Shown here one piece after another: positions 7,255 through 31,583 of a DNA stretch of 32,000 nucleotides. Position 1 is the first letter of the stretch. Each line of letters opens with the position of its first letter. The position numbers and the translations under genes were made by a program. Source of the stretch: Acaryochloris thomasi RCC1774 (GTDB lineage Bacteria > Cyanobacteriota > Cyanobacteriia > Thermosynechococcales > Thermosynechococcaceae); NCBI RefSeq assembly GCF_003231495.1, contig NZ_PQWO01000005.1, forward strand, positions 90,001 to 122,000, read 5' to 3'. Below the pieces are notes generated by a model that saw nothing but the letters and a program-made list of their open reading frames with translations, did no database searches and was not told the origin of the DNA.

Positions 7255-7329
7255 TGTTTGCCTGGGCAGACTCTCTCTCGGGTCGGGTATAGCTCTCTCA
7301 ACGCTATTCGTCGTCTCTTTTCAAAGCCA

Positions 7330-8040: not shown

Positions 8041-8072
8041 AATTTAACCAACAGTATTCATCTGCCATAATA

Positions 8073-8090: not shown

Positions 8091-8102
8091 GAGTAATGAA
8101 TA

Positions 8103-8345: not shown

Positions 8346-8764
8346 GCACACTGCTCGATACTTGCGTTTTATCTGAGTTGAGACATCCCAATTGTGATGA
8401 GGGGGTCAAGATCGCAGTATCTACTCTAGCCAGTCAAGATCTATTCATCAGCGTGATTTCCATAGGTGAAATTACGAAGGGGATTGCATTACTTGAGGCG
8501 AGTAAACGTAAACAGGAGCTTTTAACCTGGATCCACAAGCTGGAAAAGAATTATTCAGATCGTCTTCTACCCGTCGATCTTGAGGTGGTAAAAATTTGGG
8601 GAGAAATTACGGCAAACGCTCAGAGAAAAGGGCGAATCATCCCTACTGGTGATGGGCTGATTGCCTCAACAGCTCAACATCATGGCCTAAAGGTGATGAC
8701 ACGAAACATTTCTGACTTTGAGCCGACGGGGGTAATGCTCGTGAATCCTTGGAGTGGAGATTAG
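8342..8764 (+). CDS. vapC: Type II toxin VapC (PIN-domain ribonuclease)
   Basis: 140 aa with a GTG start. LLDTCVLSE (first acidic PIN residue), GEIT...A, and a C-terminal D...TRN segment (GLKVMTRNISDF). Confidence 0.9.
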   Translation: MSTLLDTCVLSELRHPNCDEGVKIAVSTLASQDLFISVISIGEITKGIALLEASKRKQELLTWIHKLEKNYSDRLLPVDLEVVKIWGEITANAQRKGRIIPTGDGLIASTAQHHGLKVMTRNISDFEPTGVMLVNPWSGD

Positions 8765-8815
8765 CGCAATCTTATTCTCATTGCCCCCTAACAGAAAACG
8801 CAAAAGATCATGTGC

Positions 8816-9055
8816 TCATATATGGAAATATTTCGACAGCTCTGTAGCTGGAATATACTGACTAGCCTGCTTAAAAATGGCCCTGCATGTTCCAGTATCT
8901 AGCTGCTTATGATTAGGAATGGTCAAAGTCTCTTTGCCTATCTCGGTTACGCGCCGCATTTTGATATGACTGCCACGTTGACTGTGGATCTTAAAACCGA
9001 ATATTTCAAGTATCTTGACGACTTCTGGCCCTGGTAGCTGCTTGAATTTAGGCAT
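8816..9055 (-). CDS. hicA: HicA-family toxin (mRNA interferase)
   Basis: MPKFKQLPGPEVVKILEIFGFKIHSQRGSHIKMRR is the HicA/YcfA signature. I prefer ATG at 9055 over the track's TTG at 9073. ATG 9055-9053 overlaps the hicB stop (TAA 9050-9048) as ATGCCTAA. Confidence 0.8.
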   Translation of the reverse strand: MPKFKQLPGPEVVKILEIFGFKIHSQRGSHIKMRRVTEIGKETLTIPNHKQLDTGTCRAIFKQASQYIPATELSKYFHI

Positions 9056-9284
9056 ACTCTGGCTGCAGTTCAAAGGTAACAGCCAGAGACGGCTGGGCTA
9101 CTAAGCCAAACTCTGTAGCGTCTGCATCCTCAAGATGTAAGCTAACGGCTTCACTTAAATTCTTTGAAACTTCATCCAGTGTCAAACCCTGCGTAACAAC
9201 TGATATTTCCATGCATTCAGCAAAATATCCTTGCTCTTCACCAGGTCGAATAATGGCGTGAATGTTTTGTTGTAGATGACTCAC
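9048..9284 (-). CDS. hicB: HicB-family antitoxin (UPF0150 fold, no obvious DNA-binding tail)
   Basis: 78 aa. IRPGEEQGYFAECMEISVVTQGLTLDEVSKNLSEAVSLHLE matches the HicB N-domain pattern. The gene lies immediately upstream of, and overlaps, hicA. Confidence 0.75.
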   Translation of the reverse strand: MSHLQQNIHAIIRPGEEQGYFAECMEISVVTQGLTLDEVSKNLSEAVSLHLEDADATEFGLVAQPSLAVTFELQPEYA

Positions 9285-9458
9285 TTCAGATTTATTCCAG
9301 GGATACTAAGCTGATTCTAGCAGTGGCACCGGGGAGAATCAGATGTACTGCAATGAGGTAGACAATTATAAGTAGGCTGGCTGATTTATCTTTAAGATAG
9401 AAATATCCTGAGATGTTTTCAGAGTAGGGCTTTGTGGGCTTGATAGTGTCAAGTCTAG

Positions 9459-9854
9459 TTATGCTTGCCTACTTACTTTTGTCTCGAGATGCTCAGCTTC
9501 ATCAAATTTTTCAAGCTCATGGAACCATCTTAGATTTGCTGCAAGAGCATGAGGAACGTCAAAATCTATACTTTTCCCATCTTGTCCCACCTCGCATCTA
9601 ATCCCCAAGAATATATTTATCTCTATTTTTCCACTCGTCGAACCATTCCAAAAGTATCGATATCTCAAGCCTGTCAGGCGATCTAGAGGACGGGAATCAA
9701 AAATTCTACACAAGGCAGAGTAAGTATTGGACGTAACTCCGAAGCTAAAGTGTCTCCGCTGTAGGTTTTTCGGTACAGAGATAGTTAAGAAATAGCCCTC
9801 GTCCTTTTTGGAGACGTTGAGCAGTTCAATCATTCCCTCGCTACTGTCACGCAT
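9459..9854 (-). CDS. Hypothetical protein (orphan, no recognisable domain)
   Basis: 131-aa ORF, visibly more AT-rich than its neighbours, with no motif I recognise. It starts about 40 nt after the psbA terminator. Confidence 0.5.
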   Translation of the reverse strand: MRDSSEGMIELLNVSKKDEGYFLTISVPKNLQRRHFSFGVTSNTYSALCRIFDSRPLDRLTGLRYRYFWNGSTSGKIEINIFLGIRCEVGQDGKSIDFDVPHALAANLRWFHELEKFDEAEHLETKVSRQA

Positions 9855-9894
9855 ATAGAAACCTTAAGAGCTAACACATCAATATAAATAGCCT

Positions 9895-9928
9895 ATAAAA
9901 GCGCCCTCAACATTGAGGGCGCTTTTAT
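9895..9928 (-). terminator. psbA intrinsic terminator (bidirectional hairpin)
   Basis: AAAAGCGCCCTCAA-ca-TTGAGGGCGCTTTT (9897-9926). The stem is GC-rich and flanked by A-runs and T-runs on both strands. It lies about 60 nt downstream of the psbA stop. Confidence 0.75.
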
Positions 9929-9986
9929 AATCACTATCTAATTATTGAGCTAACTTTCGTTAGGTCATTTCATTAGACTTGCGTGA

Positions 9987-11069
9987 TTAGCCATTGATGA
10001 CTGGAGCAGTCAGAGCAACAGTAGTGGATTCCATCGACGCTAGGTCCAGAGGGAAGTTGTGAGCGTTGCGCTCGTGCATGACTTCAAAACCAAGGTTAGC
10101 TCTGTTCAGAACATCGGCCCAAGTGTTGATCACGTTGCCGCTTGAATCAACGATGGAGTGGTTGAAGTTGAAACCGTTGAGGTTGAAAGCCATGGTGCTG
10201 ATGCCCATTGCAGTAAACCAGATTCCAATCACCGGCCATGCACCCAAGAAGAAGTGCAGTGCGCGGCTGTTGTTGAAGGAAGCGTATTGGAAGATCAACC
10301 GACCGAAGTAGCCGTGGGCTGCAACGATGTTGTAAGTCTCTTCTTCTTGACCGAATTTGTAACCGTAGTTAGCTGACTCAACTTCAGTTGTCTCACGGAT
10401 GAGAGTAGAAGTAACGAGTGAACCGTGCATCGCGGAGAACAGTGAACCACCGAAGACACCAGCAACTCCCAACATGTGGAAAGGGTGCATCAGAATGTTG
10501 TGCTCTGCCTGGAAGACAAACATGAAGTTGAAGGTTCCAGAAATACCGAGAGGCATACCATCAGAGAAGGAACCCTGACCCAATGGGTAGATGAAGAATA
10601 CTGCAAAGGCAGCGGATACTGGAGCAGAATATGCAACACAGATCCAAGGACGCATGCCGAGGCGGTAAGAGTATTCCCACTGACGACCCATCCAGCAGCA
10701 GATTGCAATCAAGAAGTGAAAGCAGATGAGCTGGTAAGGACCACCGTTGTACAGCCACTCATCGAGTGAAGCTGCTTCCCAGATAGGGTAGAAGTGGAGG
10801 CCAATAGCGTTAGAGGAAGGAACAACTGCACCGGTGATGATGTTGTTGCCGTACATGAGTGAACCAGCGACTGGCTCACGGATGCCGTCGATGTCGACGG
10901 GAGGGGCGCCAATAAAGGCGATGACGAAACAAGTAGTCGCAGCGAGGAGCGTAGGAATCATCAATACGCCGAACCAACCGATGTATAAACGGTTATCGGT
11001 GCTTGTGATCCAGCTACAAAAGCGCTCCCAGGCGCTGCCGCTTTCGCGACGTTGTAGAACAGTTGTCAT
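9987..11069 (-). CDS. psbA: Photosystem II D1 protein (Q130 form, all Mn4CaO5 ligands present, 16-aa C-terminal extension)
   Basis: 360 aa, unmistakable D1 ([60 protein letters not shown]). D170, E189, H332, E333, H337, D342 and A344 are all present. Confidence 0.99.
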
Positions 11070-11127
11070 AATATAAGTGCGGGTAATGGGTATGTAATGA
11101 ACGACGGGGTGAATATGATGTGTCGCT

Positions 11128-11166
11128 CTTGTTAACTAATGTAACAGACTCTGCCTCCCATTACAA
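11128..11166 (-). promoter_or_regulatory. Putative psbA promoter with overlapping HLR1-like repeat
   Basis: The minus strand reads TTGTAA (11166-11161), a 17-nt spacer, then TACATT (11143-11138). GTTACATT-AG-TTAACAAG (11145-11128) approximates the HLR1 consensus (G/T)TTACA(T/A)(T/A)-NN-(G/T)TTACA(T/A)(T/A) with 2 mismatches. Confidence 0.4.
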
Positions 11167-11214
11167 GGGCGTTTGAGCGTATTCTTCTAATTCTCTTAAC
11201 AATTCGAGTCAATT

Positions 11215-11463
11215 TTAGGTGTCGTGGATGCCGGGGATAATCAAGTCTTCTGCTGACCTAAAATCATCATCTTCTGTCTTCTCGCCGATGAGTTCAGGCT
11301 GTTGGTTGATGCATCCTGGCTTCTGATTGAACTGACAGACTCTGGCGTAGAGCTTGGCCCGCGTCCCTGGCTGACCCACTGCAAAATTTACTTTTTCGTC
11401 TGCTGTGATGGAAACGTTACAGGCGGGGCAAGTTTCAAGGGTCTGATTATCTTGTGGATTCAT
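11215..11463 (-). CDS. Small Cys-containing (zinc-ribbon-like) hypothetical protein
   Basis: 82 aa. CPAC near the N-terminus, a later C-x8-C (CQFNQKPGC), and an acidic tail. No family recognised. Confidence 0.55.
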   Translation of the reverse strand: MNPQDNQTLETCPACNVSITADEKVNFAVGQPGTRAKLYARVCQFNQKPGCINQQPELIGEKTEDDDFRSAEDLIIPGIHDT

Positions 11464-11567
11464 GAGTTCCTTTACTCGACCGATACGTCAGCTTTATTTA
11501 CACAAGGATAAGGGGTGAGACCTTTTCCCTTCTATATAGATAGATCCTTCAGCGCTTAATTGAGGAA

Positions 11568-11600
11568 CCCCCAGTTCATACAAGCTGTATGCACTGGGGG
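11568..11600 (-). terminator. Hairpin downstream of the 90-aa gene (possible terminator)
   Basis: CCCCCAGTTCATAC-aagct-GTATGCACTGGGGG forms a 14-bp stem with one mismatch. The T-tract on the minus strand is weak (TTCCTCAATT). Confidence 0.45.
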
Positions 11601-11683
11601 AGCTTTCTGAATCAAATGCAAGATTCAGTCGCGTTACCTATAACCCTAGAAGGGCCATAAGGTAATTCTCAAGTCGAAATGGA

Positions 11684-11956
11684 CTAGCTAACGAGAATTG
11701 CAATAGAGACTGGAATCCAGGTGACAGCCGCAAATGCTACGGCTTGCCATGCTCGTGTCTTGACTGAAGTTTTCTCAGCAGCGGAACTTGTAGGTCCGAC
11801 TGCATAGTTATTGGCTAGACCCTCTTGGTCAACGGTGCCACCAAAGACGCGAGGCATAGGAAAACCCTCTGACCGCTTGAGGCGTGCTGCTGCCTCAGCA
11901 GGGATGAGTTCGTTAGCAACGGAATACTGTTGAGCAGTAGAAGTAGCGGAAGTCAT
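11684..11956 (-). CDS. Small tail-anchored membrane protein, function unknown (putatively high-light regulated)
   Basis: I place the start at ATG 11956 (MTSATSTAQQYS...), preceded by AAGGGA. The track's TTG at 12019 is the -35 hexamer of the predicted promoter. There is one C-terminal TM helix (AWQAVAFAAVTWIPVSIAILVS). Confidence 0.6.
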   Translation of the reverse strand: MTSATSTAQQYSVANELIPAEAAARLKRSEGFPMPRVFGGTVDQEGLANNYAVGPTSSAAEKTSVKTRAWQAVAFAAVTWIPVSIAILVS

Positions 11957-11971
11957 AAATAAATCCCTTTG

Positions 11972-12019
11972 TGTAACGCTTTGTATCAATAATGTAACAA
12001 GTTGTAACGTTAATGTCAA
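11972..12019 (-). promoter_or_regulatory. Promoter (-35 TTGACA / -10 TACATT) overlapped by four phased HLR1-type half-sites
   Basis: Minus strand: TTGACA (12019-12014), a 17-nt spacer, TACATT (11996-11991). Half-sites are GTTACAAC-TT-GTTACATT (12008-11991), then GATACAAA-GC-GTTACACA (down to about 11970). On the plus strand these are TGTAAC/TGTATC at 11972, 11982, 11993 and 12003, spaced 10-11-10 bp. Confidence 0.5.
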
Positions 12020-12262
12020 ATGGTATTTTTATTTGTGGTTCTTGTGGTAATGGATTGTGTCTAGAAGAGCCTAGAGGCCACTATCTCATGAGGCTTCTCT
12101 ACCTCCACTCCACATATGTGGAGCAGTTTTTCTCCAGGCTATGGGCAACGTGATGATGATCACGAGGGGGTAGGGCGTAGATCACGGCGGCAGCTTCTGG
12201 ATTATTGGATTATCAGCCTAGTTAAGAGAGCAGCACACCTCAATCAACCTACGGAGACAACG

Positions 12263-12448
12263 ATGCAACTCACCTATCGCGGCATTTCTTACCATGCTCC
12301 TGACCCTGTAGAAGTCTCTTCTCAAGGGACAGTTCAAGGGCTGTATCACGGCATCTCTACACAAATCACGTTGCCACAGGTGACTGAAGGTCTTGATGAA
12401 TTACTCGGCCAAATGATCTATCGAGGCATTCAACTAGCTGCTCACTAA
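12263..12448 (+). CDS. DUF4278-family small protein
   Basis: MQLTYRGISYHAPDPVEV... is the characteristic M-x-L-x-YRG-x-x-Y start of DUF4278, preceded by GGAGA. The longer track ORF from 12116 adds an implausible Arg-rich leader. Confidence 0.7.
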   Translation: MQLTYRGISYHAPDPVEVSSQGTVQGLYHGISTQITLPQVTEGLDELLGQMIYRGIQLAAH

Positions 12449-12769
12449 AAAATTCAATTTCCTCCGCAAAATAAACCATCTGCACCTCTTTGGACTCTCA
12501 GTGATGAGTGTCTATGGGGGTGTTTTTATAGAAGGGAGCGAGGAAAGGACTGAACAGCATAAACTCACAGGCATCACAGAAAGCTCAAACCTCTGATGGT
12601 TTATGTCTGCACGTATAGCCTTCGACATATTGATTAGGACATCAAAGCGATTGAAAGCTATGTCTGCCGAAGCCGCGCTGCTGGCGACGGCTATAGAAGA
12701 GAGACCAGACGGCCCACACTGGGCGTAGAGATAGACCATGCAGAAACCAAAACCAGCACCAGCAGCGAC

Positions 12770-13540
12770 CTAAGCGAGCGGCGCTGCTTCAGTCGTGCGG
12801 AGTAAATCCATGATTTCATCTTGATATTGTTGAAATTTGGATTCTCGTTTGACAAGGTAAGTGCGTTCGCTTGGCAAATCCACGGCAATTTCGCGCTGGA
12901 CCATACCGGGACGAGCGGTAAGTACATAAACCCGCTGGGAGAGAAAGACGGCTTCGCCCACGTCATGGGTGATCATCAAAATTGAGGTGCCGGTCTGTCG
13001 CCACAGATTAAGCAAGAACTGCTGCATGGTCTCTTTTGTTTGGACGTCCAAAGCCCCAAACGGCTCGTCCATTAACAAGATTTTGGGCTGGCAGGCTAGG
13101 GCACGGGCTATAGCAACTCGCTGCTTCATCCCCCCCGACAATTCTCTAGGTAGCGCCTTTGCAAACGCCGTCAAACCTACAACATCTAAGTAATAGGCTA
13201 CTCGATCTCGCCGCTCTTTCTGAGAAAAGCCCTGAAGCTTCAGACCAAACTCTACATTTTTTGCCACCGTCATCCAGGGATAAAGCGTGTAGCGTTGAAA
13301 CACCATCCCGCGATCGGGTCCAGGACCTACCACTGTTTTATCATCGACGGTAATCAAGCCAGTGGTTGGCAGATCTAGCCCAGCGACCATGCGCAATAGC
13401 GTTGACTTACCTGAACCAGAGGCACCCACCACGCAGACAAACTCGCCGGTTTCAACATGGAGATTGATTGCTTCGAGAACCGAAAGCGAACCTTGCTGGG
13501 TGGGGAATGACTTATAGAGATCCGTAATTTCTAAATGCAT
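12770..13540 (-). CDS. ABC transporter ATP-binding protein, NitT/TauT (nitrate/sulfonate/bicarbonate) family; probable guanidine importer ATPase
   Basis: 256 aa. Walker A GASGSGKST, signature LSGGMKQR, Walker B LLMDEPFGALD, H-loop ITHD. Last gene of the riboswitch operon. Confidence 0.93.
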   Translation of the reverse strand: MHLEITDLYKSFPTQQGSLSVLEAINLHVETGEFVCVVGASGSGKSTLLRMVAGLDLPTTGLITVDDKTVVGPGPDRGMVFQRYTLYPWMTVAKNVEFGLKLQGFSQKERRDRVAYYLDVVGLTAFAKALPRELSGGMKQRVAIARALACQPKILLMDEPFGALDVQTKETMQQFLLNLWRQTGTSILMITHDVGEAVFLSQRVYVLTARPGMVQREIAVDLPSERTYLVKRESKFQQYQDEIMDLLRTTEAAPLA

Positions 13541-13544
13541 GGCC

Positions 13545-14381
13545 CTAATCCACCGCCCACTTACAGGATATGTTCAGCAACCAGCGGAAAAACAGATCCA
13601 AACAAAAGCCAATCAAGCCCAGGATCAGCAGCAGGGCAAAAATTTCGTCAGTGCGAAAAAATCGCTGCGCCAGCTCCACCCGCTTCCCGAGACCTTCGGT
13701 AGCTGCCACCAGCTCTGCAATCACCACTAAATTCCATGATGCAGCCATGTTCACCCGGAAGGCGTCGATAATTTTAGGCATGACATAGGGCGTAATCACC
13801 TGCATCAGCACTTGCCGCTGACGCCCGCCCAGAGTATACGTCGTTTCAATCAGTTCTTTGGGCACAAACTTCACCGCATCCATAATCATCAAAATATTGA
13901 AGAAAACGGTGCCAATGAAAATTAGCGCAATTTTAGGCGGTTCATCTAAACCGAGATAAATGATCAGGAGTGGGATAAAGGCTGGAGCTGGCATATAGCG
14001 GACAAAGCCAATGATGGGTTCCAAAAGTGCCCTGATGCTGGGAAATGTCCCCATACCAATTCCAATCGGAACTGAGAGAACCGCAGCCAGTAGAAATCCA
14101 CCACCCACTCGAAAACAGCTTGCAGTCGTATCTTTGAGCAAGTATCCCTTCTCCCAAAGCGTACCGAACGCTTCAATCACCTTGGCAGGAGAGGGCAAAA
14201 ACTTTGGATCAACAAAACCCGCGCTAGAAAGACCCCACCAGAGTATCAAAGGCACTAGAAACGATAGTGCAATCAAAAACCACTTAAGACCGATCGGAAT
14301 ATCATCAACGATGCGCCAAAAAACGGTGGGCCGAAGTCCTTCTAATTTAGTGTCTGGCGCTGAGGTCGGGTGAGAGATCAT
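13545..14381 (-). CDS. ABC transporter permease, NitT/TauT family
   Basis: 278 aa, multi-TM, with an EAA-like loop (ELVAATEGLGKRV). There is a 4-nt gap to the ATPase gene. Confidence 0.92.
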   Translation of the reverse strand: MISHPTSAPDTKLEGLRPTVFWRIVDDIPIGLKWFLIALSFLVPLILWWGLSSAGFVDPKFLPSPAKVIEAFGTLWEKGYLLKDTTASCFRVGGGFLLAAVLSVPIGIGMGTFPSIRALLEPIIGFVRYMPAPAFIPLLIIYLGLDEPPKIALIFIGTVFFNILMIMDAVKFVPKELIETTYTLGGRQRQVLMQVITPYVMPKIIDAFRVNMAASWNLVVIAELVAATEGLGKRVELAQRFFRTDEIFALLLILGLIGFCLDLFFRWLLNISCKWAVD

Positions 14382-14450
14382 GGAGGTGCCTACAAAATGA
14401 TCAATGGGCAGGCTAATGCCCGCCCAATATCAAATAGCCAATCAGCCTAA

Positions 14451-15479
14451 CTAGCCCTTGTTCTGTTCAGCATAAGCTTTGACAAAGGTATCGTCGAAGA
14501 TCTTCGTCAAGTCTGGACCTTCAGGAATAAAGCCAACATCCACCATAAACTTCGTCATCCGCTCCGCAGCGAAGGGCATATGCTTCATGTTGTCTCCGTC
14601 GCTGAAGGCTTCGAGATTATCTTCAATCGTGAAAAAGCGCGTCCCTTCATTGAACTTCTCGAATTCTTCCGGCGACACCCCGGCACGCTCTGACAATATC
14701 TTGTCCGCTTCTTCAGGATTTTCTTCCATGAAGGCTCGGATATCAAACCAAGTATTCACAAGCGCCTGTACCTGATCAGGGCGCTCATCGATCAGCTTTT
14801 GGCTCACGGTCAGCAAGTCAGGAATCGCCCCTGGAAACTGTGCTGAAGAGAAGAGCTCTTTACTCCCCTCTCGTTGAAGGGCCGTCAGCCAGAAGGGCGG
14901 GAATGCACCCACTGCGTCCACCTGACCTGCAACAAATGCCGCTGCCGCTTTACCTGTCTCTAGGGGAACAATTTCGACGTCCTCGCGCTTCATCCCCTCT
15001 TCTTCTAGCCCTAAGGTCAGCAAAAAGTCGTCAACAACGCCTTCTTCAACGGCAACTTTTCTCCCTTTCAGATCTTGAATACTATTGATTTCCTCTGTAA
15101 CAATAATTTTGTCATTGCCATCAGAGTTATCGTTTACAAGCACCACTACTTGACCATTGGTCGAATCGGCAGCGAAAGAAATTGTGTCATTGAGCGTTTG
15201 GGTGTTGCCGTCTAGTTGACCTGCAGCAAAGGCTTCCATCGACTGTAGATAACCATCAAACCATTTGAGTTCGACGTTAGCCCCGTTCTTTTCAAAGAGT
15301 CCTTCTTGTTCAGCAATCACCCAAGGCCACCAGCCCGGCCAGCTACTGTAGCCAATCACCACAGGGGAGCCACCGTCACCAGCGGGCGCATTACCAGATG
15401 GCGTTTGGGTACAGCTCACCGTCAACAGCAAGCTACATAGAAAAAGAGTACAGATAGATAAAAAGCTACGCCGCTTCAT
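14451..15479 (-). CDS. ABC transporter substrate-binding protein (NMT1/SsuA-like), possible lipoprotein
   Basis: 342 aa. Signal peptide ending LLLTVSC. Periplasmic binding fold typical of NitT/TauT systems (VVIGYSSWPGWWPW). Confidence 0.9.
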   Translation of the reverse strand: MKRRSFLSICTLFLCSLLLTVSCTQTPSGNAPAGDGGSPVVIGYSSWPGWWPWVIAEQEGLFEKNGANVELKWFDGYLQSMEAFAAGQLDGNTQTLNDTISFAADSTNGQVVVLVNDNSDGNDKIIVTEEINSIQDLKGRKVAVEEGVVDDFLLTLGLEEEGMKREDVEIVPLETGKAAAAFVAGQVDAVGAFPPFWLTALQREGSKELFSSAQFPGAIPDLLTVSQKLIDERPDQVQALVNTWFDIRAFMEENPEEADKILSERAGVSPEEFEKFNEGTRFFTIEDNLEAFSDGDNMKHMPFAAERMTKFMVDVGFIPEGPDLTKIFDDTFVKAYAEQNKG

Positions 15480-15522
15480 AGGCTTTCCTTAGATTGAATT
15501 GATACGATGTGAAATTAAACCA

Positions 15523-16218
15523 CTATGCTGATTGATGGGCCGGTTTACGGCTTCTGACTTGCGATCGCAACCAGTCAAACCACCTCTCTAACCCATCACC
15601 CGACTGCGCCGAGACCGGAATAACTTTCACACGGGGATTAAGCTGTCGCACATTAGCAACAATGCGCTCAATCTCAATGTCAAGGTACGGTGCCAAATCA
15701 ATTTTAGTAATCAGCAAACAATCTGCCGCCTGAAACATCACCGGATATTTCAGCGGCTTGTCTTCCCCTTCTGTGACGCTGAGCAGTGCTACCTTGGCAT
15801 GTTCGCCGACTTCAAACTCAGCGGGACAGACTAAGTTACCCACATTTTCCACCAGCACCAGGTCTAGATCGGTGGGTCGATGATCTTGCTTGAGCTGATG
15901 AATTCCCCCGGCGACCATCTTGGCATCTAAATGACAAGAGCGACCCGTATTAATGGCAATAACGGGCACATCATATTGTCTAAGGCGGTCTGCATCCAGT
16001 TCAGTCGTCATATCACCCTCGATCACCGCAATTTTGAGTTCGGGGCGCAGTGCAGCTAGGGTTTTCTCCAGCAGGACTGTCTTGCCAGCACCGGGACTGC
16101 TCATCAGGTTTAGGCAAGTCACACCCCATTCATCAAAATGGACACGATTGTGATCGGCCCCTTCTTGGTTGGCATGGAGGAGGTTAATCCCCAGCGCCGC
16201 ATCAACGGTTTGGTGCAT
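15523..16218 (-). CDS. hypB: HypB-type Ni-metallochaperone GTPase (GhaB-like accessory protein for guanidine hydrolase)
   Basis: P-loop [17 protein letters not shown], and the TKIDL GTPase motif. I prefer ATG 16218 (MHQTVDAAL...) to the track's TTG 16257. Overlaps the hypA 3' end by 17 nt. Confidence 0.9.
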
Positions 16219-23542: not shown

Positions 23543-23830
23543 ATGGAACCTAATTATCGTCGCTGTATTTGCTGTCGCAAAGTTGCGCCCAAACAAGAGT
23601 TCTGGCGAGTCGTTAGAGTCCATCCTGACCGATCAGTGCAGCTCGATCACGGTATGGGGCGCTCAGCTTATCTCTGTGCTCAAGCTGACTGTCTTAGACT
23701 CGCGCAAAAGAAAAATCGCTTGGGTCGTGCACTTAGAGCATCAGTCCCAGATTCGATCTATCAAACGCTGCAAGAGAGACTCACAGAAGGCGACAGAATA
23801 TTAAAGCCATTACCGGTAAGCAAAAATTAA
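23543..23830 (+). CDS. ylxR: YlxR/RnpM-family (DUF448) RNA-binding protein
   Basis: 95 aa. RRCICCRKVAPKQEFWRVVRV and GRSAYLC are the DUF448 hallmarks. Confidence 0.8.
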   Translation: MEPNYRRCICCRKVAPKQEFWRVVRVHPDRSVQLDHGMGRSAYLCAQADCLRLAQKKNRLGRALRASVPDSIYQTLQERLTEGDRILKPLPVSKN

Positions 23831-24379
23831 ACAGATCAATCGAGATTATTTGAATTTCACCAGAGTTTAAAAGACCTGTTAAGCCATTAAAAATAATTAA
23901 GGTATCTAAATATTTCCAGGCGCCATAATGGCAGACTTGGATACCCTGTTTTTCGTTGACAGCAGCTCTGAACAAGCCATTCCGATCGAATTCTTGAGCA
24001 TAGATATGGAAGCGCTGTAGAAATTATGATTGCATCACAATTGACTTTTGATTCAGAAATAGTATGATAATACCCGGTGAACTGCATTATCAAATCAGCA
24101 AAGTTTTTGCTGGTCCTAATTTCTATGGGGTTAGAAAAGGGGCGCACCTGTATTACCTTCCAGAATAAGTACTAGAGCAACTTTAGTGGCTTTTACTTAT
24201 GCGGGAAGAGGCAGGCAATATTTTGCATATTTATTTTTTGAACTGAATATAAAAAAGACGGAAATTAATATCTGTAGATATTGATTTAATTTTTTCGAGT
24301 AGCTATTTTTTCTGTGCTATCGAAAATTTTCTGTGCGTCTTGATTTCAAAGAAAGTTTTTCTGAGAATTAAGTACAGGT

Positions 24380-26239
24380 ATGTATACTTTTCTTTTCGTC
24401 CAAAATCCTAAAGGTAAGAGTTCAGAAGCGGAACTCAAACGCTGGGCAAATCTAACAAAGAAATGGATGCCATCTTTAGACACCTCTCTTACGAAAAGGG
24501 TCTGCTGGCTACCTGATGTTAGTGCTGGTTGGTTTTATTTACAGCCAACAGTTGACGTTAAGTACCCAATAATGAGTGATGTCATCAATGAACACTATGC
24601 GGTCCTTGCTTTCGGAGTCGTCTTACCAACATCTTGCAGCACAGCTCAACACATTCTCAACGCCTGGCTGATAGGTAGAGCAAAGGGTGTACAGGCCTTG
24701 GAAGGGAGCTTTTCAGCCGTTATCATCAATCGAGCAACAGGTGCTGTTGTCTGGATGGGTGACATCATGGGTCGGCGCCGACTCAGATACCACTATGCCC
24801 GCACCAGAGGAACGTTACTCATTTCTCCCCATGATGTCTCTCTAGTCGCCACTGGCAAGGTGCCGGTAGAGTTTGATGATATTAGTGCAGCTAGCATCGC
24901 TGTTGTTAAGTGGTCTTTAGGCGGCAAAAGCTTATTGAGTTCCGTTCAAAGCTGTCATCCGTCGGAATATATCCACTACTCAGAAGGGCACATCAGCTCA
25001 CATTCACTACCGCTCATCAATCCCGATGAACGAATTTCATCCCGTGATATTAAAGGAATTAAGCGGCATCGAGATCAGCTCATTGAGACTGCACGCTCTC
25101 ACTTGAAACCACTAGTCAGTGAGCCTGAAATTAAAGCTTCACTAACGGCTGGCCTAGATAGCAGAGCCATGTTGAGCTTACTAATTTCGGTTGTCGATCC
25201 CAAAAAAATCACAACTTTTACCAGCGGTCAGCCAAATTGTCTTGATGTTCAGATAGCTCAAAAATTAGCGCATATAGCAGGAGTTAAACATAATGTTATG
25301 TCTCCTGAAAAACATAATGAGAATCTTATCAATTATGCTGATCTGCTGGCCTTCTATTTCAATGGAGATGCAACCAGTAAAGTCGGTCTTATTAGTCCGC
25401 TACCCAACTTTCAGCCTAATAACCAACCCCACTTAGGTGGTTTGGCTGCAGAAATCTTTCGAGGCTTTTCTTATCGAAAATGTCTTTTCCCAAATCTACG
25501 ACCTCTAGCGCTCCATAGTGTTGTGGGAATGCTCGCTGGTGAAAGAGTCAGCAGTCATCATTTGCCATGGGACTCTTCAGAACTTGAGAATGCTGTTCAC
25601 AGAAGATTAGAAGGCCTTATCAGACACTATTCAACAGTGACGACAGATGGATATGACATACTCGATCTATTCAATATTTATGAGGTGAGTGGTGTCTGGG
25701 GAGCAAGACAGCAAAACCCCTGGAATCCGAGCCCCAAATGGAGTCCCTTCTCCAGTCGCCAGTTACTCAAGCTTGCCCTGAGACTACCGGCTCCAATGGG
25801 CTACCATGCACGGATTCACCAGGAAGCCATTCGTCGATACTTGCCCGAAGCTTATTGGATGGCCGTCAATGGTCAAACGCTGCCAGCTCTTCGCAGTAGT
25901 GAGCTAATCGCTAGCTACAGGAAAAAGTATCAACGCGGTTTACGGCGTCTGGGGCTATGGAGAGAAAGCGTTGCGGCTAATGCTTATACGCCTCGAGATT
26001 TACAAGCGTCTGCCTTAGCTGGTCCTGTAAGACAGACTGTCTGCGATCTGCTTTTAGATCGTGATAGCTTCAGTCGAAAAATTTTTAGTCAAGCCCATCT
26101 GGAAGCATTACTGATGCAAGAACAATTTCCAACGAGGATTGTTGACACAATAGGATCGATGGTGACGATGGAGCGGTGGCATCGACTCATGCAGGGGGTA
26201 CGGCAAGAGGCTCAAGGTTTACACGTTACATTACGATAG
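24380..26239 (+). CDS. Asparagine-synthase-like PP-loop ATP-pyrophosphatase family protein lacking the N-terminal Cys nucleophile
   Basis: 619 aa. It begins MYTFLF (no MCG), and an in-frame TAA lies just upstream. There is an AsnB-like N-domain remnant (EGSFSAVIINRATGAVVWMGDIMGRRRLRY) and a PP-loop-like SLTAGLDSRAML (nt 25139-25174). No HIP1. Confidence 0.8.
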   Translation: MYTFLFVQNPKGKSSEAELKRWANLTKKWMPSLDTSLTKRVCWLPDVSAGWFYLQPTVDVKYPIMSDVINEHYAVLAFGVVLPTSCSTAQHILNAWLIGRAKGVQALEGSFSAVIINRATGAVVWMGDIMGRRRLRYHYARTRGTLLISPHDVSLVATGKVPVEFDDISAASIAVVKWSLGGKSLLSSVQSCHPSEYIHYSEGHISSHSLPLINPDERISSRDIKGIKRHRDQLIETARSHLKPLVSEPEIKASLTAGLDSRAMLSLLISVVDPKKITTFTSGQPNCLDVQIAQKLAHIAGVKHNVMSPEKHNENLINYADLLAFYFNGDATSKVGLISPLPNFQPNNQPHLGGLAAEIFRGFSYRKCLFPNLRPLALHSVVGMLAGERVSSHHLPWDSSELENAVHRRLEGLIRHYSTVTTDGYDILDLFNIYEVSGVWGARQQNPWNPSPKWSPFSSRQLLKLALRLPAPMGYHARIHQEAIRRYLPEAYWMAVNGQTLPALRSSELIASYRKKYQRGLRRLGLWRESVAANAYTPRDLQASALAGPVRQTVCDLLLDRDSFSRKIFSQAHLEALLMQEQFPTRIVDTIGSMVTMERWHRLMQGVRQEAQGLHVTLR

Positions 26240-26845
26240 AATCGACAGATATTGATTAACTTGCCTGGGCTGAGAATAAGCAAAGGGCATTGTTCAGGCA
26301 TGCAAGACAGTTAGTCACAGATGACCTAGCCGTATCCTACGGCACCAGTCTTCGTGCCAAAAACTACTCAAAAAAATACTACAGTAGAGACCCTAGAAAA
26401 GCGGAAAATGCAAGATCTTTTTCGGCTGGATCTGACCGACAGTATAAACTTTGAGTTTCAGCAGTAAGCGAACGAAGCGTGTGCTACTTGAAACAGAAAT
26501 TATTACAAGTACTATGACCTCTCAAGCACAGGTCAAAATACACAAAGTATGATAAAAACTTGGCATATACTATTCGACAGCATAATATATGCACGGTACT
26601 ATGTGCACCTCAATCCAAATAAACATAGATCTGCTCAAGATCCTATTTTTATTGGGACAGAGATGCTAACGCTGTAAACCTATCTCACCTTCATGATATG
26701 AGGAGACTTGGCTTCCAGGCGGAAAGTATGCAGCACTTAGATAGGAATAAAAATGAAGGGTTAAGGGCTTAGTAATCTAGCTCTATAAACTTTAGAGAAA
26801 ACGGAAACAGGAATTAATCAATCTCCGATAGGTAGGAATTAAAAA

Positions 26846-29035
26846 ATGAAGGGAAAAATATTATTATTAACAGCAATAAGTATTCAGATTTTCTTCCTTG
26901 CTTTCACAGAAGAATCAAAAGCTCACGCTCCACATGATGTAATTTCAGATATATATATTTCTCCTGAATTTGAGACTAACAAAGTTCTACTTTCAGTAAT
27001 TAGAGGAATTCTTTTAAGATCTACTGATGAAGGCAAGACATGGAAAAAAATTGTACAGGGCTTACCCAGCTCATATCGACTCAATGAACTAGACAGCTCT
27101 CCAAAAGATAGTAATACTATTTATCTTTCATCAGAAGGTAACGGCATATATAAATCGGTAGACTATGGGCTGTCGTGGAAAAACACCAGCAGAAATCTAC
27201 AAGACAAAAAAATTGGCACTATCAAAGCTTCACCTACTTCATCTCAAGAAGTTATAGCATCTGGGCAAGCAGGTGGAGTTTATATAACAACAGATGGAGG
27301 GGGAAGTTGGAAACAGGTAATTTCAGAAAAAATAAAGATTAACGCCATAGAATTTTTCGAAGAGAAAGTCTTATTAGGCGGGCAAGACGGCAGATTGCAT
27401 ATACTCAAAAATAATCGAAAAGATACGGAAACAGTAGAAATAAAAGGCGGATGCCAAATAAGCTCCATAGCAGCTAATAAAAATTCTTCTGCATCTCCAC
27501 TGTTATTTTTAGGAACCAATAACTGCGGCCTATTTTATTCCAATACTGATCTATCATCATTTCAGAAAGCTGAAGATAAATTCCTAGATGAACCTATCAA
27601 ATCAATTCAATTTTCTCCTGATTTCAGTGTCGACTCCAAAATCTATCTTTCCACTACTGGTAAAGGCGCTTTTTGCTTCATAAAGGATGAGGAAAATTGG
27701 GAAGAGTGTAGCAATGGTCTTACAAAAGATAAGCAAGCTGAAAAATATAAAGAGCCACACTTCACAAAACTAGCAATATCACCTTCTTTTAGCAAAGATA
27801 GAACTATTTTTCTTGAAGGATTTAATGGCTTATTTAAATCTGAGAATGCAGGAGAATCATGGTCTGAAGTTGACACGCTTTCGCCTGAAATTATCGTTGG
27901 TTTAGATGTCTCGCCAAACTATAAAAATGATTCAACAGCAGCTGTTTCAACATATCTGGGTGGAGCATATTTGACAAATAATTCAGGGATGGATTGGTCT
28001 CCGATCAATAACGGGATACTATCCTTTGCAAGGTTATTTGAAAAAGATCAAATAGAACGTATTTTTTCAATAAAATTTTCACCCAACTACATTAAAGATA
28101 GGACAATTTTTTCTTCGTCTTGGTGGGATTTTCTAAGATTCAAAAGTAGCAATAAAATTTGGGTAAGAGTTCCAGGAAAGAAAGAGAATATTGCAGTAAC
28201 GATTGATTTTTCTCCAGACTATGATGAAGATCAAACTCTATATACTGGATCAGATAGAGGACACATTTTTAAGTCGCAAGATGGAGGGAAAAACTTTTCT
28301 AAAGTCAAAAGTTTTAAAGGAGAAATATCAAGTCTAAGTATTTCACCAAGCTTCAAATCTAATCGAAAAATTCTTGCAATTGTAAACAATAAATTGCACG
28401 AGACTTCAGATGCTGGAAAATCCTGGAAAGAAGTTAATTTTTTTAGTGAACTCTTTGTTAGAAGTGCAGAAATATTGACTGATAGTTCGTCAGGTATAAA
28501 GTCTATAGTTGCGACTAATGAAGGGATCTATTCTCAGTCAACATCAGAAGAGTCGTGGGAAAAATTTAGCGATGAAAATGTCGATCAGTACATCGAAGCA
28601 TTGGCAGTTTCCCCTAATTTTAAAAATGACGAAATACTGCTTGTTAGCGTCAGCGGTAAAGGTTTATTCAAGAGCAATAATGGGGGAGAAATATTTTATG
28701 AAGTCGGAAGAGAACTTATAAAAAATAACCACCTTTTATCAAACTTCAGCAGCAGCTCTAACGTCACTTCTCAACCAATAAAGTTTTCACCTACATTTTC
28801 TGAAGATAATACAGTTTATGGATATTCTGATAAAAGCACCTTTAGGTCAGTTGACGGTGGTGAAACCTGGGAAGAAGTTGGTGTTCCTAAATTAAATAAA
28901 AATAAATTTTTGCTGTATACTACGATGAGTTTCAGAAAATATATTTTATACTTTCTAGCTGCATTTCTCGTAATTATTTTTATTACTATAAAAGCAAGAA
29001 AAAGATCCATAAGTGAGAATCACAAGGCATCCTAA
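26846..29035 (+). CDS. BNR/Asp-box repeat beta-propeller protein (Ycf48/GH74/sortilin-like) with a signal peptide and a C-terminal TM anchor
   Basis: 729 aa. Signal MKGKILLLTAISIQIFFLAFTEESKA. About 14 S-x-D-x-G-x-(S/T)-W-type boxes (STDEGKTW, SVDYGLSW, TTDGGGSW, SENAGESW, SQDGGKNF, TSDAGKSW, SVDGGETW and others) alternate with SP(N/D/S)F..D.T(I/L)(F/Y) strands. C-terminal YILYFLAAFLVIIFITIKARKR. Sampled lines count about 35% G+C. Confidence 0.8.
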   Translation: MKGKILLLTAISIQIFFLAFTEESKAHAPHDVISDIYISPEFETNKVLLSVIRGILLRSTDEGKTWKKIVQGLPSSYRLNELDSSPKDSNTIYLSSEGNGIYKSVDYGLSWKNTSRNLQDKKIGTIKASPTSSQEVIASGQAGGVYITTDGGGSWKQVISEKIKINAIEFFEEKVLLGGQDGRLHILKNNRKDTETVEIKGGCQISSIAANKNSSASPLLFLGTNNCGLFYSNTDLSSFQKAEDKFLDEPIKSIQFSPDFSVDSKIYLSTTGKGAFCFIKDEENWEECSNGLTKDKQAEKYKEPHFTKLAISPSFSKDRTIFLEGFNGLFKSENAGESWSEVDTLSPEIIVGLDVSPNYKNDSTAAVSTYLGGAYLTNNSGMDWSPINNGILSFARLFEKDQIERIFSIKFSPNYIKDRTIFSSSWWDFLRFKSSNKIWVRVPGKKENIAVTIDFSPDYDEDQTLYTGSDRGHIFKSQDGGKNFSKVKSFKGEISSLSISPSFKSNRKILAIVNNKLHETSDAGKSWKEVNFFSELFVRSAEILTDSSSGIKSIVATNEGIYSQSTSEESWEKFSDENVDQYIEALAVSPNFKNDEILLVSVSGKGLFKSNNGGEIFYEVGRELIKNNHLLSNFSSSSNVTSQPIKFSPTFSEDNTVYGYSDKSTFRSVDGGETWEEVGVPKLNKNKFLLYTTMSFRKYILYFLAAFLVIIFITIKARKRSISENHKAS

Positions 29036-29257
29036 AACCTCCTACTCTAGAAGAAAATTTAAATTCACTTTTGCATTTCTAGGTAAACTAAGTAAATTTA
29101 TTATTATGGATATTTAGTCTCTGAAAAACTTAGAGAAATCTAATTATAGCAACATGCGTATTGATTAAGGCATCTAAAGTTTTGAACATCACGTCTGTTA
29201 AAGAGGAGCTGTCCTAACTCAGCCGGGTACTGCTATGGTGTGAAATATTTCAACACA

Positions 29258-30142
29258 TCAATTCTTTAGTTCACTAAACTCAAATCCCCACTCTTTAACA
29301 TCAAACTTATAAACGTCTTGCAATCTTTTCATATCATCTTCAAGTTCAGAGTAAACCATTTCCTTTTGATAATCTGAAAGCCTGTATAAGCTTTCATCTA
29401 CTTGCTTTCCAACTATTTTCTTTATCTTTCTTCTGAGAGTTCTAAATCCATCATCAAATGGAATATTATGCTCAAGAAATCTAGCAGCTTTTTTAAAGAA
29501 ACTGCTGACTACAAGTTTTTCAGATCTTGAGTTATATACTTTATCTAACAGAGATGCACATTTTTTGCTGATCGACTCATCGAGATTTAAAAAATCAAAC
29601 ACTTTTAGTAAAGTAGCTTCTTTATCTGAAATCAATTCATCTAAAGACAGCATCAGTATATTATCGTTAGTAAAATAATTCGAGTATTTATTAACTTGAG
29701 TAAAATACTTGCTAGTAGAAATTAAATTTTTATGGATACTTTCTGTCTTCGAGAGTTTTTCAGTTGATTTCCATCCTTTGACCTGTCCATCAATATAAGT
29801 AGATTCAATTCTATCAAAAGGATTTCTCATAATATAGATGAAATGAAAATTCAAATCATGTTCTTTAGAGAATTCAGAAATTCTTTCAGCACAATCTGGA
29901 AAATGAGGCGTTTTCGTATATGTCGTTGATGCTTCTAAAGCCATTTTATGAATACTGGGATCATAGTCTACCCAAAGATTTTGATAATCTTCCATCTTAA
30001 ATGTGTCGTTAGTGCTAAAGAACTTAGGTTCTTTTTTGATGCACGAGCAAATTTCAGGATGTTTTGCAATATAGTTATATAAACTACTTGTTCCACATTT
30101 CATTGCCCCAATGATTATCACAAAATTTTTGATCATTATCAT
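29258..30142 (-). CDS. PAPS-dependent sulfotransferase
   Basis: 5'-PSB motif IIIGAMKCGTSSL and 3'-PB motif IMRNPFDRIES. I prefer ATG 30142, preceded by a canonical AAGGAG, to the track's TTG 30154. Sampled lines count about 33% G+C. Confidence 0.85.
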   Translation of the reverse strand: MIMIKNFVIIIGAMKCGTSSLYNYIAKHPEICSCIKKEPKFFSTNDTFKMEDYQNLWVDYDPSIHKMALEASTTYTKTPHFPDCAERISEFSKEHDLNFHFIYIMRNPFDRIESTYIDGQVKGWKSTEKLSKTESIHKNLISTSKYFTQVNKYSNYFTNDNILMLSLDELISDKEATLLKVFDFLNLDESISKKCASLLDKVYNSRSEKLVVSSFFKKAARFLEHNIPFDDGFRTLRRKIKKIVGKQVDESLYRLSDYQKEMVYSELEDDMKRLQDVYKFDVKEWGFEFSELKN

Positions 30143-30530
30143 CCGCTCCTTCAAATATTAAAACCTATTTATTTAATTTCTATAAGATTTATTTATTAAT
30201 TCAGTAAAAATTCTTAGCATCAGTTTATTTATTTTTCTGTTCTCAACACCTTTATTTTAAATTAAAAGAACTCTATTCAAGTGTGCTTATCGCTTTCATG
30301 ACCTCCTTTAGGATTTAAGATATTGAGACAAAATCAAATTTTTTTGATTTTGCAGAATGCTACTAATTTACTACATTCTCACAATTATTTTTGTAGACGG
30401 TAGTAGAAAAGCACCGCAGTGAAATCTCTACTACAGCCTACTAATAGCTCAGGCTAGCATTCTGAAGAGCTTATCAAAGTGGATATGGGATATGTGGCAT
30501 AATAATCCGGCAATTATCTAGCGGTATCTC

Positions 30531-31583
30531 ATGGCGCAGAGTAGTGTCGAGTCTCAGATTGTTTTGTCAGATGCCGTAGTTGAAGGGTCTAATGAACTCA
30601 ACCTCAAGCTACCGGATCCAGAAGATGAAATAATTTCTGATTTTGATTTTCAGCAACAGGTGAATGCAGCCTGGTTGGTTTGCGATCGCATCAATCTGCA
30701 GTCCGACATATGGCGAGGTCGCATTCTAAGGGCCGTGCGCGACCGCGAAAAACACAGCGGCGAAGGCCGGGGCACTGGTTTTCTGCACTGGCTGCAGGAG
30801 CAAGAGATCAGTAAAAGTCAGGCCTATAGCTGGATCGAACTGGCCAACAGCGCCGATACCCTGCTCGAAAACGGGCACCTAGAAGCCTCCGCCATTGACA
30901 ACTTCAGCAAGCGCGCCTTTGTGGAAACCGCCCAAGCCGCCCCCGAAGTGCAGCAGTTAATCAGCGAAACCGCCAACCAAGGGACCGCCATCACCCGCCG
31001 CGAAGTACAGCAGCTTACCGATGAGTGGGTCGGGATGACCTCAGACCTGGTTCCAGCAGAGATTAAAGCGAAAGCAGCCGATCAAACAATTCCCACTCGC
31101 TATTTAGCACCCTTTGTACGAGAGCTAGAGAAGCTGCCTGAGGTCCACCAGTCCGCCCTGCAGGAATCCCTGAGTGAAGATCCTGACATCGATACTCTCA
31201 AGCAGGTCACCAACGAAGCCAAGCAGTTGGCCAAATATTTGTCGGCCTCTACTGAAGTGCAGGCAATCACTGCCCACAGTATTGATTTAGAAGCCAGTCT
31301 AGAAGAAGCGCTGCGCCTTGGGTGTCTTAACTCAGCCGCTGATATGGTCAACCAGGCGGCCCAACTTGAACAGACAATTGCTAAACTTTATACGACTTGG
31401 CGGCGGATTCAGCGACTTTCGGGCAAAGTATACGCCGATAGTGGTGCCAGTACCCCCAACTTGCGATCGCTTGTGCAATCTTTAGAAGGTCTATGTGGCG
31501 AGGTACTAGAAATTGAGCTGGGTAGCCAATCTGCTCAGCCGATCACCGTTCGCCTGAAAATGCTCAACCCTGATGACGGTTAA
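30531..31583 (+). CDS. Hypothetical protein, DUF3102-like N-terminal region and helical acidic C-terminal region
   Basis: 350 aa. IWRGRILRAVRDRE...GTGFLHWLQEQEISKSQAYSWIELAN resembles DUF3102. HIP1 sites at 30682 and about 31463 indicate native composition. Confidence 0.55.
   Translation: MAQSSVESQIVLSDAVVEGSNELNLKLPDPEDEIISDFDFQQQVNAAWLVCDRINLQSDIWRGRILRAVRDREKHSGEGRGTGFLHWLQEQEISKSQAYSWIELANSADTLLENGHLEASAIDNFSKRAFVETAQAAPEVQQLISETANQGTAITRREVQQLTDEWVGMTSDLVPAEIKAKAADQTIPTRYLAPFVRELEKLPEVHQSALQESLSEDPDIDTLKQVTNEAKQLAKYLSASTEVQAITAHSIDLEASLEEALRLGCLNSAADMVNQAAQLEQTIAKLYTTWRRIQRLSGKVYADSGASTPNLRSLVQSLEGLCGEVLEIELGSQSAQPITVRLKMLNPDDG

Follow-up and report, generated by a model that had tools for sequence, protein, structure and literature searches.

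Cyanobacteria characteristically produce sulfated exopolysaccharides, which are of interest for biofilms, blooms, metal binding and biotechnological use. Genes that alter surface glycans are known from flexible genome regions: serotype-converting modification genes (O-antigen acetylases, glucosylation genes) occur in bacterial flexible islands, and marine cyanobacteria carry hypervariable surface-glycan islands of low G+C content (GC). For synechan, the product of the xss cluster of Synechocystis sp. PCC 6803, the sulfotransferase XssA (sll5042) was found to be genetically required for accumulation (Maeda et al. 2021, PMC8205485), and cyanobacterial sulfotransferases in general are located in polysaccharide clusters (PMC8205485). 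Here we analyse a locus of Acaryochloris thomasi RCC1774 at which a sulfotransferase gene, a gene for a double-propeller protein with BNR repeats and a gene for an AsnB-like protein occupy one strain-variable slot. The products of all three are 100% identical to proteins of this strain. The window, i.e. the whole stretch of DNA analysed, is 32 kb long, and all coordinates are positions in it. Loci and proteins retrieved for comparison are cited by number (L001, P0023).

The slot shares with flexible islands a fixed site, conserved flanks and different AT-rich, glycan-modifying cargo (an acyltransferase in the relative L001, a sulfotransferase and BNR protein in the window). It differs from them in that neither phage nor integrase, neither tRNA nor att repeats came to light at it, and in that the junction falls within a protein-coding gene, at the 3' end of ylxR. 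The comparison with xss is similarly mixed. The window sulfotransferase shares the motifs that bind 3'-phosphoadenosine-5'-phosphosulfate (PAPS) with XssA, and its closer homologues lie in Wzx/Wzy-type or ABC-type polysaccharide clusters, in line with what is reported for cyanobacterial sulfotransferases in general. The window gene itself, however, is found outside a biosynthetic cluster, together with a BNR propeller gene in a variable slot. The inspected part of the xss cluster contains no BNR protein.

As the best explanation overall, which we hold with moderate confidence, the slot contains two cassettes, a sulfotransferase-BNR pair and a lone AsnB-like enzyme, that tailor glycans. The features in question are:

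23543-23830, plus strand: ylxR (rnpM-like), left flank; Pfam YlxR, 87 bits
23783-30486, no strand: strain-variable slot of ~6.7 kb, delimited by synteny with L001, GC profile and alignment of its edges
24380-26239, plus strand: AsnB-like open reading frame (ORF) of 619 amino acids (aa), cassette 1
26846-29035, plus strand: BNR/Asp-box ORF of 729 aa, cassette 2, gene 1
29258-30136, minus strand: sulfotransferase gene, cassette 2, gene 2; a 298-aa ORF spans 29258-30154
30531-31583, plus strand: gene for a 350-aa protein, right-flank backbone, beside the slot in L001 too (tblastn, blastn)

A strain-variable slot at the 3' end of ylxR

Genes in the slot are separated by long spacers of 549, 606 and 222 bp, and a fourth spacer measures 376, 388 or 394 bp, depending on which candidate start of the sulfotransferase is taken (TTG 30154, ATG 30142 or ATG 30136, respectively). 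In the windowed profile, GC of about 50-55% gives way to 35-50% between 24.0 and 26.5 kb and to 30-38% between 26.5 and 30.5 kb. By gene, GC and GC at third codon positions (GC3) are 46.1% and 40.2% for the AsnB-like gene, 34.3% and 25.6% for the BNR gene and 30.7% and 27.1% for the sulfotransferase gene, compared with about 48-55% and 50-60% for backbone genes; the spacers of the slot have 30-39% GC. HIP1 (GCGATCGC) occurs at 17 sites in the window, 0.42 being expected by chance. None of them lies between 22544 and 30682, and exactly four are found in the neighbouring radical-SAM gene. An earlier note on this DNA, made from the sequence alone, had described the same ORFs, coordinates, long spacers and AT-rich, HIP1-free region, and our ORF, composition and HIP1 scans agree with it, including the four HIP1 sites of the radical-SAM gene; its GC of about 55% for that gene was too high, the measured value being 51.9%. 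Since a second HIP1-free gap of similar length (6935-15561, 8.6 kb) was detected by the window scan in ordinary backbone, absence of HIP1 is weak evidence when taken alone, and composition is the stronger island signal.

Relatives were retrieved via the radical-SAM protein. The closest syntenic one is L001, a contig of a metagenome-assembled genome (MAG) whose radical-SAM protein is 89% identical. Its gene order is that of the window (GH1, radical-SAM, TM2, ylxR ... 350-aa gene), with ~1.7 kb between ylxR and the 350-aa gene as opposed to ~6.7 kb in the window. The only cargo of this interval in L001 is a gene for a 373-aa Acyl_transf_3 acyltransferase with 30-36% GC; all three window genes are absent. 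Contig L002, with a radical-SAM protein 90% identical, was discarded as a boundary reference, being non-syntenic beyond that gene.

On the left, blastn homology to L001 stops at 23761, and the YlxR proteins of the window, of L001 and of a fragment in contig L082 diverge after "...YQTLxxRL", at about codon 80 (~23782). Because homology to relatives ends there, the last ~15 codons of ylxR are, as judged from these alignments, assigned to the variable segment. On the right, alignment with L001 resumes ~45 nt before ATG 30531. The slot is thus atypical in composition and, at a fixed site, polymorphic in the presence or absence of its cargo. Since L001 holds other cargo between the same flanks, the interval from ylxR to the 350-aa gene is a strain-variable slot with different AT-rich cargo in close relatives. 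This sustains the idea of an island or horizontal insertion put forward in the earlier note. When relatives were compared over this interval, as it had proposed, the same genes were not present at the locus in L001. Its label for the right flank, DUF3102, was not reproduced: no DUF3102 match was obtained in Pfam at E<=0.01; the 350-aa protein gives sub-threshold Pfam matches only (TipAS, EthR_C) and belongs to no confident family.

L001 also differs outside the slot. In addition to the Acyl_transf_3 slot gene (L001:615-1736), it carries between the TM2-domain gene and ylxR an extra GNAT acetyltransferase gene (L001:2377-2835) that is absent from the window.

Contig L082 contains the closest AsnB-like homologue (74% aa identity), and its upstream spacer is homologous to that of the window. 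Directly after the AsnB-like stop codon lies a 3' fragment of ylxR (L082:2131-2229; codons 49-81 with a new tail and stop). The fragment marks the 3' end of ylxR as the junction and recombination point, and it resembles an att-type duplication of this end. The window island itself contains no such displaced piece of ylxR. Neither tRNA nor Rfam match was found in the window, no flanking repeats were found at the slot and no integrase or transposase among the window ORFs, in accordance with the lack of tRNA and integrase stated earlier. Promoter and terminator scans of the window gave nothing informative.

Low GC might also have arisen without transfer. Surface-polysaccharide and glycan-modification genes are typically of low GC in many bacteria, and the slot could hold old AT-rich genes of this kind that were lost from relatives. 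The AT-richness of both the L001 cargo at the same site and the homologous gene pair in contig L081 (see below) would be compatible with this. Moreover, the AsnB-like gene with its upstream spacer is ~77% identical in nucleotide sequence to L082, resembling the 79-81% between backbone and L001, which suggests vertical descent of the AsnB-like cassette; for this cassette, AT-richness without transfer is partly plausible. The other two genes are harder to accommodate. A search of 5.8 billion proteins returned nearest homologues of the BNR protein and sulfotransferase that are 45% and 54% identical, their GC3 of 26-27% is extreme against 50-60%, and slot content is wholly different between close relatives. 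We consider long residence an unlikely origin of the slot as it stands and prefer gain of cassettes at a flexible site.

A recurring pair of BNR and sulfotransferase genes

The BNR and sulfotransferase genes of the window are convergent. Their best homologues, P0023 (45%) and P0143 (54%), respectively, are neighbours on contig L081 (4,779 bp, 33-34% GC), which is regarded as cyanobacterial because HIP1 is present. The gene of the BNR homologue P0028 (37%) is part of a Wzx/GT/Wzy/Wzc exopolysaccharide cluster, where it is preceded by a run of three sulfotransferase genes and begins 4 bp before the last of them ends. P0027 (38%) is preceded by a Sulfotransfer_4 gene and by an ORF of 293 aa whose P-loop and RDP motifs resemble those of sulfotransferases, and a sulfatase lies nearby. 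Adjacency to sulfotransferases was thus observed in four of five cyanobacterial BNR contexts, a small sample chosen by similarity. This is far beyond chance, since only one sulfotransferase-like ORF, corresponding to a background of ~0.6 per Mb, was detected in 1.6 Mb of unrelated cyanobacterial loci (L001-L080) used as control. BNR and sulfotransferase genes therefore constitute a conserved, recurring pair. The pair had been missed by the earlier note. No paper linking this BNR propeller family to sulfotransferase clusters was found in the literature searched, and the link appears to be undescribed.

Two observations were made in BNR contexts. In L016 (Xenococcaceae MAG), a 36%-identical BNR homologue (L016:12925-15321) lies directly 3' of the orthologous radical-SAM gene, with a hexapeptide acyltransferase next downstream and no sulfotransferase there. 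In L098, a 629-aa protein without Pfam match, encoded upstream of the sulfotransferases, was considered as a distant AsnB-like relative and rejected (hhalign probability 0.1%); it is a polytopic membrane protein.

The sulfotransferase matches Sulfotransfer_1 (PF00685) with 49.5 bits (cutoff 22). Two motifs are discernible:

30083-30109, minus strand: 5'-phosphosulfate-binding (5'-PSB) motif GAMKCGTSS (aa 16-24), pattern GxxKxGT[ST]
29801-29827, minus strand: 3'-phosphate-binding (3'-PB) motif RNPFDRIES (aa 110-118), pattern RxP..R..S

Residues G16, K19, R110, P112 and R115 are invariant in all 22 aligned sequences. Translation most likely starts at ATG 30136, 9 nt downstream of AAGGAG (30151-30146), the Shine-Dalgarno sequence already pointed out in the earlier note. 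Over 180 aa, the protein is 33% identical to the terminal sulfotransferase of the xss cluster on Synechocystis pSYSM, which gene order identifies as sll5042/XssA. The protein at the XssA position scores 94 bits (E 6e-27), and that at the XssE position 29 bits (E 8e-5). A search with the profile of the family gave matches to heparan-sulfate 3-O- and N-sulfotransferases (3-OST/NDST, E 1e-32 to 1e-21), and homologues of 40% identity sit in Wzt-type and Wzc-type glycan clusters. The protein is thus predicted to be an XssA-subfamily carbohydrate sulfotransferase of PAPS type that is located in the cytoplasm, and gene context of homologues together with the heparan-sulfate match points to a polysaccharide acceptor. 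Peptide modification, which the earlier note had offered as an option, is unsupported, as homologues of the sulfotransferase lie in polysaccharide clusters.

Upstream of the sulfotransferase gene, the AT-rich spacer contains (30273-30308, minus strand) a strong AAGGAGG sequence and, 2 nt after it, an 8-codon mini-ORF (MKAISTLE); as a Shine-Dalgarno sequence AAGGAGG would be atypical here, since the spacing is too short.

The BNR protein matches Sortilin-Vps10, PSII_BNR and BNR in Pfam. It has a signal peptide (aa 1-26), a C-terminal membrane anchor detected by hydropathy (aa ~699-715, nt 28940-28990), nine recognisable Asp-boxes and as many SPxFxxDxT blade motifs. Its AlphaFold2 (AF2) model (pLDDT 85.6) displays two seven-bladed beta-propellers which, with the GH74 matches described below, fit the earlier estimate of about 14 blades. 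As modelled, the protein is an exported, membrane-anchored double propeller with GH74-like fold. In each of the 25 homologues aligned, the sequence H-x-P-H-D (aa 27-31, nt 26924-26938) directly follows a signal-peptidase site of AxA-like type, so that the mature protein would start with His. Invariant residues of the family include H27, H30, D31, R53, Q297 and R405. The H-x-P-H-D sequence may bind a metal or help to close the propeller, and the second propeller begins with a related "PHF" motif. An LPMO-like (lytic polysaccharide monooxygenase) histidine brace at the N-terminal His was considered and not adopted, the second "PHF" suggesting a structural role of PH[D/F].

We wondered if the protein could be a true GH74 endoglucanase/xyloglucanase (NCBI name "Xyloglucanase Xgh74A") that degrades external plant or algal glucans, its adjacency to sulfotransferases being incidental. 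Tandem seven-bladed propellers with BNR/Asp-box repeats are common to it and to GH74 xyloglucanases (PDB 6p2l, 6p2m, 2cn3), which are also its best full-length Foldseek matches (E ~1e-22 and TM-score ~0.53, within a range of ~0.5-0.54, over ~750-800 columns). The profile matches GH74 chains as well. On the other hand, identity in these matches is 11-14% with sequence alignments out of register, and NF045728 ("F510_1955 family glycosylhydrolase") is hit with 136.6 bits, below its cutoff of 175. Unlike GH74 enzymes, the window protein has no carbohydrate-binding module and is tethered to the cell's own membrane, and its family carries the invariant H-x-P-H-D at the mature N-terminus and SPxFxxDxT blades, which as far as we can judge are not GH74 signatures. 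Its gene partners, too, are sulfotransferases and genes of biosynthetic exopolysaccharide clusters, not glycan-utilisation genes. Taken together, a glucan-degrading GH74 enzyme appears quite unlikely, and a role beside the sulfotransferase is preferred.

BNR-type seven-bladed propeller repeats are also shared with Ycf48/HCF136, and the family, with some 600 or more members, is often named "YCF48-related" in databases. However, Ycf48 is a single propeller of ~330-340 aa, whereas the window protein has 729 aa, two propellers and another gene context, and it scores 52.9 bits against the Ycf48 model NF010237 (cutoff 326).

The AsnB-like gene, the mosaic slot and remaining features

The AsnB-like ORF of 619 aa is annotated by NCBI in a 555-aa version. 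It scores 19.1 bits with Asn_synthase (PF00733, cutoff 21) and 42.9 with TIGR01536 (cutoff 267.1). Its AF2 model (pLDDT 86.7) is matched in Foldseek by TsnB9, beta-lactam synthetase, AsnB and CarA over both domains (E 1e-17 to 1e-13), which confirms a two-domain AsnB fold with an N-terminal-nucleophile (Ntn) amidotransferase-like N-domain and a PP-loop synthetase-like C-domain. For all three products, Pfam, profile searches and Foldseek agree with the fold and family calls made earlier. The description of this protein as "Cys-less" is correct for the N-terminal nucleophile, as all full-length homologues start with M-Y/H-T/S-F (MYTF in the window) and have no Cys at position 2, but not for the rest of the chain, where six internal Cys are present. 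The C-domain contains one recognisable motif:

25139-25165, plus strand: degenerate PP-loop S-L-T-A-G-L-D-S-R (aa 254-262), aligned to SGGxDS of canonical AsnB

A257, G258, D260 and R262 of this motif are invariant in 20 homologues, the family pattern being (S/T)AGxD(S/T)R; hhalign pairs LTAGLDSR with LSGGIDSP of canonical AsnB at a probability of 88% only. The acidic positions of SG[E/D]GxDE are variable or deleted (hidden Markov model (HMM) alignment to human ASNS, hhalign). Within the AsnB superfamily, the family makes up a small branch that has not been studied. An exhaustive HMM search gave at least 223 representative 50%-identity clusters at E<=1e-30; these overturned the notion of extreme rarity that had come from a k-mer-limited search with 21 matches.

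We inspected the surroundings of AsnB-like genes at eight independent loci (L082, L083-85, L086, L087, L088/89, L090, L091 and L093) and those of BNR genes at five besides the window (L081, L098-100, L101-103, L016 and an Acidimicrobiia contig). Neither a BNR protein nor a sulfotransferase of XssA (window) type occurs in any of the eight, and no AsnB-like gene occurs in any of the five, so that the trio is found together in none of the 13 other contexts inspected. L082 contains the AsnB-like homologue without BNR and sulfotransferase genes, and L081 the BNR-sulfotransferase pair without AsnB-like gene. In view of this lack of co-occurrence and of the sharp difference in GC (46% for the AsnB-like gene versus 31-34% for the pair), two separate acquisitions are supported: the slot is a mosaic of two independent acquisitions, not one three-gene system. 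The earlier note had favoured an undescribed system of three genes and had named co-occurrence as the check on it. What stands is its fallback, a mosaic of two acquisitions, given the intermediate GC of the AsnB-like gene and the separate cassettes of L082 and L081. Searches of plasmids revealed no cyanobacterial homologues of the BNR or AsnB-like proteins.

A single surface- or peptide-modification system in which the AsnB-like enzyme, propeller and sulfotransferase act on a common substrate would explain why three compositionally atypical genes are adjacent in one variable slot. In L087, moreover, a glycan cluster contains an AsnB-like homologue and, at a distance of 7 kb, a PF00685 sulfotransferase. 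That sulfotransferase, however, has no detectable similarity to the one in the window. The 606-bp spacer between AsnB-like and BNR genes, the opposite strand of the sulfotransferase gene and the difference in GC also speak against common function, and with co-occurrence missing from all contexts we find such a system very improbable. The following discussion assumes two cassettes.

AsnB-like genes have diverse neighbours. In L087 and L088/89, they are found among canonical AsnB paralogues, GT2/GT4 glycosyltransferase, Wzm/Wzt, APH/choline-kinase-like and methyltransferase genes; elsewhere, a phosphatase (L082), a HerA-like ATPase (L083) and a PIN toxin-antitoxin pair (L086) are nearby. A soluble protein of ~500 aa without Pfam match is encoded directly 3' of the AsnB-like gene in L086 (12058-13524) and L088 (3334-4926; 66% identical) and is absent from the window. 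A function in defence was considered and dropped, as PADLOC gave no defence-system match for any of the three window proteins and the HerA-like neighbour occurs in L083 alone.

The two-domain AsnB fold is shared with the Cys-less AsnB paralogues beta-lactam synthetase (1jgt) and carbapenam synthetase (1q15) and with the amidotransferase TsnB9 (7ylz); the window protein has no N-terminal Cys and keeps a PP-loop-like motif. The AsnB-like gene might thus encode an orphan lasso-peptide cyclase or natural-product enzyme of beta-lactam-synthetase type. With these structures it shares only 12-14% identity, and it differs from them in its (S/T)AGxD(S/T)R PP-loop, non-conserved acidic SG[E/D]GxDE residues and lack of natural-product partner genes, and its family forms a group of its own. 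An adjoining transglutaminase-type leader peptidase, PqqD-like partner or conserved precursor-like ORF was found in none of the eight contexts; L083-L085 have a 45-aa ORF after the AsnB-like homologue, and L084 has a Transglut_core gene ~7 kb downstream. A precursor with leader peptidase and RiPP recognition element (RRE), or clavam/carbapenem genes, adjoin the AsnB-like gene neither in the window nor in these contexts. Since, in addition, two contexts are glycan clusters, two share the different ~500-aa partner that is absent here, and PADLOC gave no defence match, an enzyme of this kind is extremely improbable, and we retain a lone glycan-tailoring enzyme as the preferred reading.

Several features elsewhere in the window deserve mention. 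Within the HIP1-free gap at 6935-15561, a patch of 40-44% GC at 8.0-10.0 kb contains a PIN-domain gene (8342-8764) and an unassigned 131-aa ORF (9459-9854) and adjoins a Photo_RC (psbA/psbD-type) gene (9987-11069); it may be another small insertion. Immediately before this gap, HIP1 sites at 6724, 6826 and 6928 are 102 bp apart in a TPR-repeat gene (6565-7254), HIP1 being embedded in every 34-codon TPR unit. The gene at 4006-6420 encodes an 804-aa protein composed of DUF6851, VCPO_2nd (vanadium-haloperoxidase-like helical bundle) and RTX calcium-binding repeats, and just upstream of it lies an export pair of HlyD/MacB type (1066-3728).

Proposed function and meaning of the locus

We propose that the interval from the ylxR 3' end to the 350-aa gene serves as a recombination hot-spot or flexible slot in the Acaryochloris lineage, where A. 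thomasi would have gained the two cassettes independently. The sulfotransferase-BNR pair probably tailors a sulfated surface sugar polymer. In the cytoplasm, the sulfotransferase would use PAPS as donor to sulfate a sugar, either in a lipid-linked repeat unit or in a nascent chain; the exopolysaccharide precursor would be made by a cluster elsewhere in the genome, and we infer that the cassettes act in trans on this distant pathway. Other exopolysaccharide systems employ periplasmic hydrolases and lyases. By analogy, the BNR protein, exported via Sec and held by its C-terminal helix on the outer (periplasmic) face of the cytoplasmic membrane, could bind or trim the sulfated polymer in its inter-propeller cleft during export. 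The AsnB-like enzyme would have lost glutaminase chemistry and kept the PP-loop. If active, it would most likely adenylate a carboxylate, possibly that of a sugar acid, and amidate it with an external amine without use of glutamine.

A number of observations weigh against this reading. Nothing in the window, be it integrase, tRNA or flanking repeat, accounts for mobility of the cassettes, and the evidence from L082 comes from a single short (3.3-kb) metagenome contig. The 32-kb window contains no genes for polysaccharide synthesis or export, leaving the target polymer unseen. The BNR homologue of L016 and an actinobacterial one (Acidimicrobiia) have no sulfotransferase nearby, and the sulfotransferases beside distant BNR homologues belong to other subfamilies. 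GH74 profile alignments of the BNR protein are partial and out of register, the catalytic Asp pair of GH74, with one Asp in each propeller, could not be placed, and the protein may be non-catalytic. Likewise, as the acidic SG[E/D]GxDE residues are not conserved, the AsnB-like protein could be inactive, and most contexts of its family are not glycan clusters.

As a system of three genes the locus is ordinary, since they lie side by side as a mosaic. What is conserved, the BNR-sulfotransferase pair, agrees with a known theme, the tailoring of sulfated exopolysaccharides, and brings to it an extracytoplasmic propeller partner that had gone unremarked. In the literature we found, only one such pathway (synechan/xss) has been genetically dissected, and the link of sulfotransferases to an uncharacterised family of exported double propellers suggests that a step outside the cytoplasm is missing from the known scheme. 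As candidate roles, the BNR family may provide a hydrolase specific for sulfated glycans, a chain-length controller or an export chaperone. We tentatively suggest, as a possibility short of an even chance, that this "YCF48-related" family of ~730-800 aa is a dedicated extracytoplasmic part of sulfated-polysaccharide production and that, with an XssA-type sulfotransferase, it makes up a portable two-gene "sulfation cassette" which moves between cyanobacteria and re-tailors their exopolysaccharide. In any case, the BNR-sulfotransferase pair is a compact two-gene module, and the locus cleanly illustrates a hot-spot of glycan modification, located at the 3' end of ylxR, whose cargo differs in close relatives. 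This bears on how cell surfaces diversify under pressure from phages and grazers.

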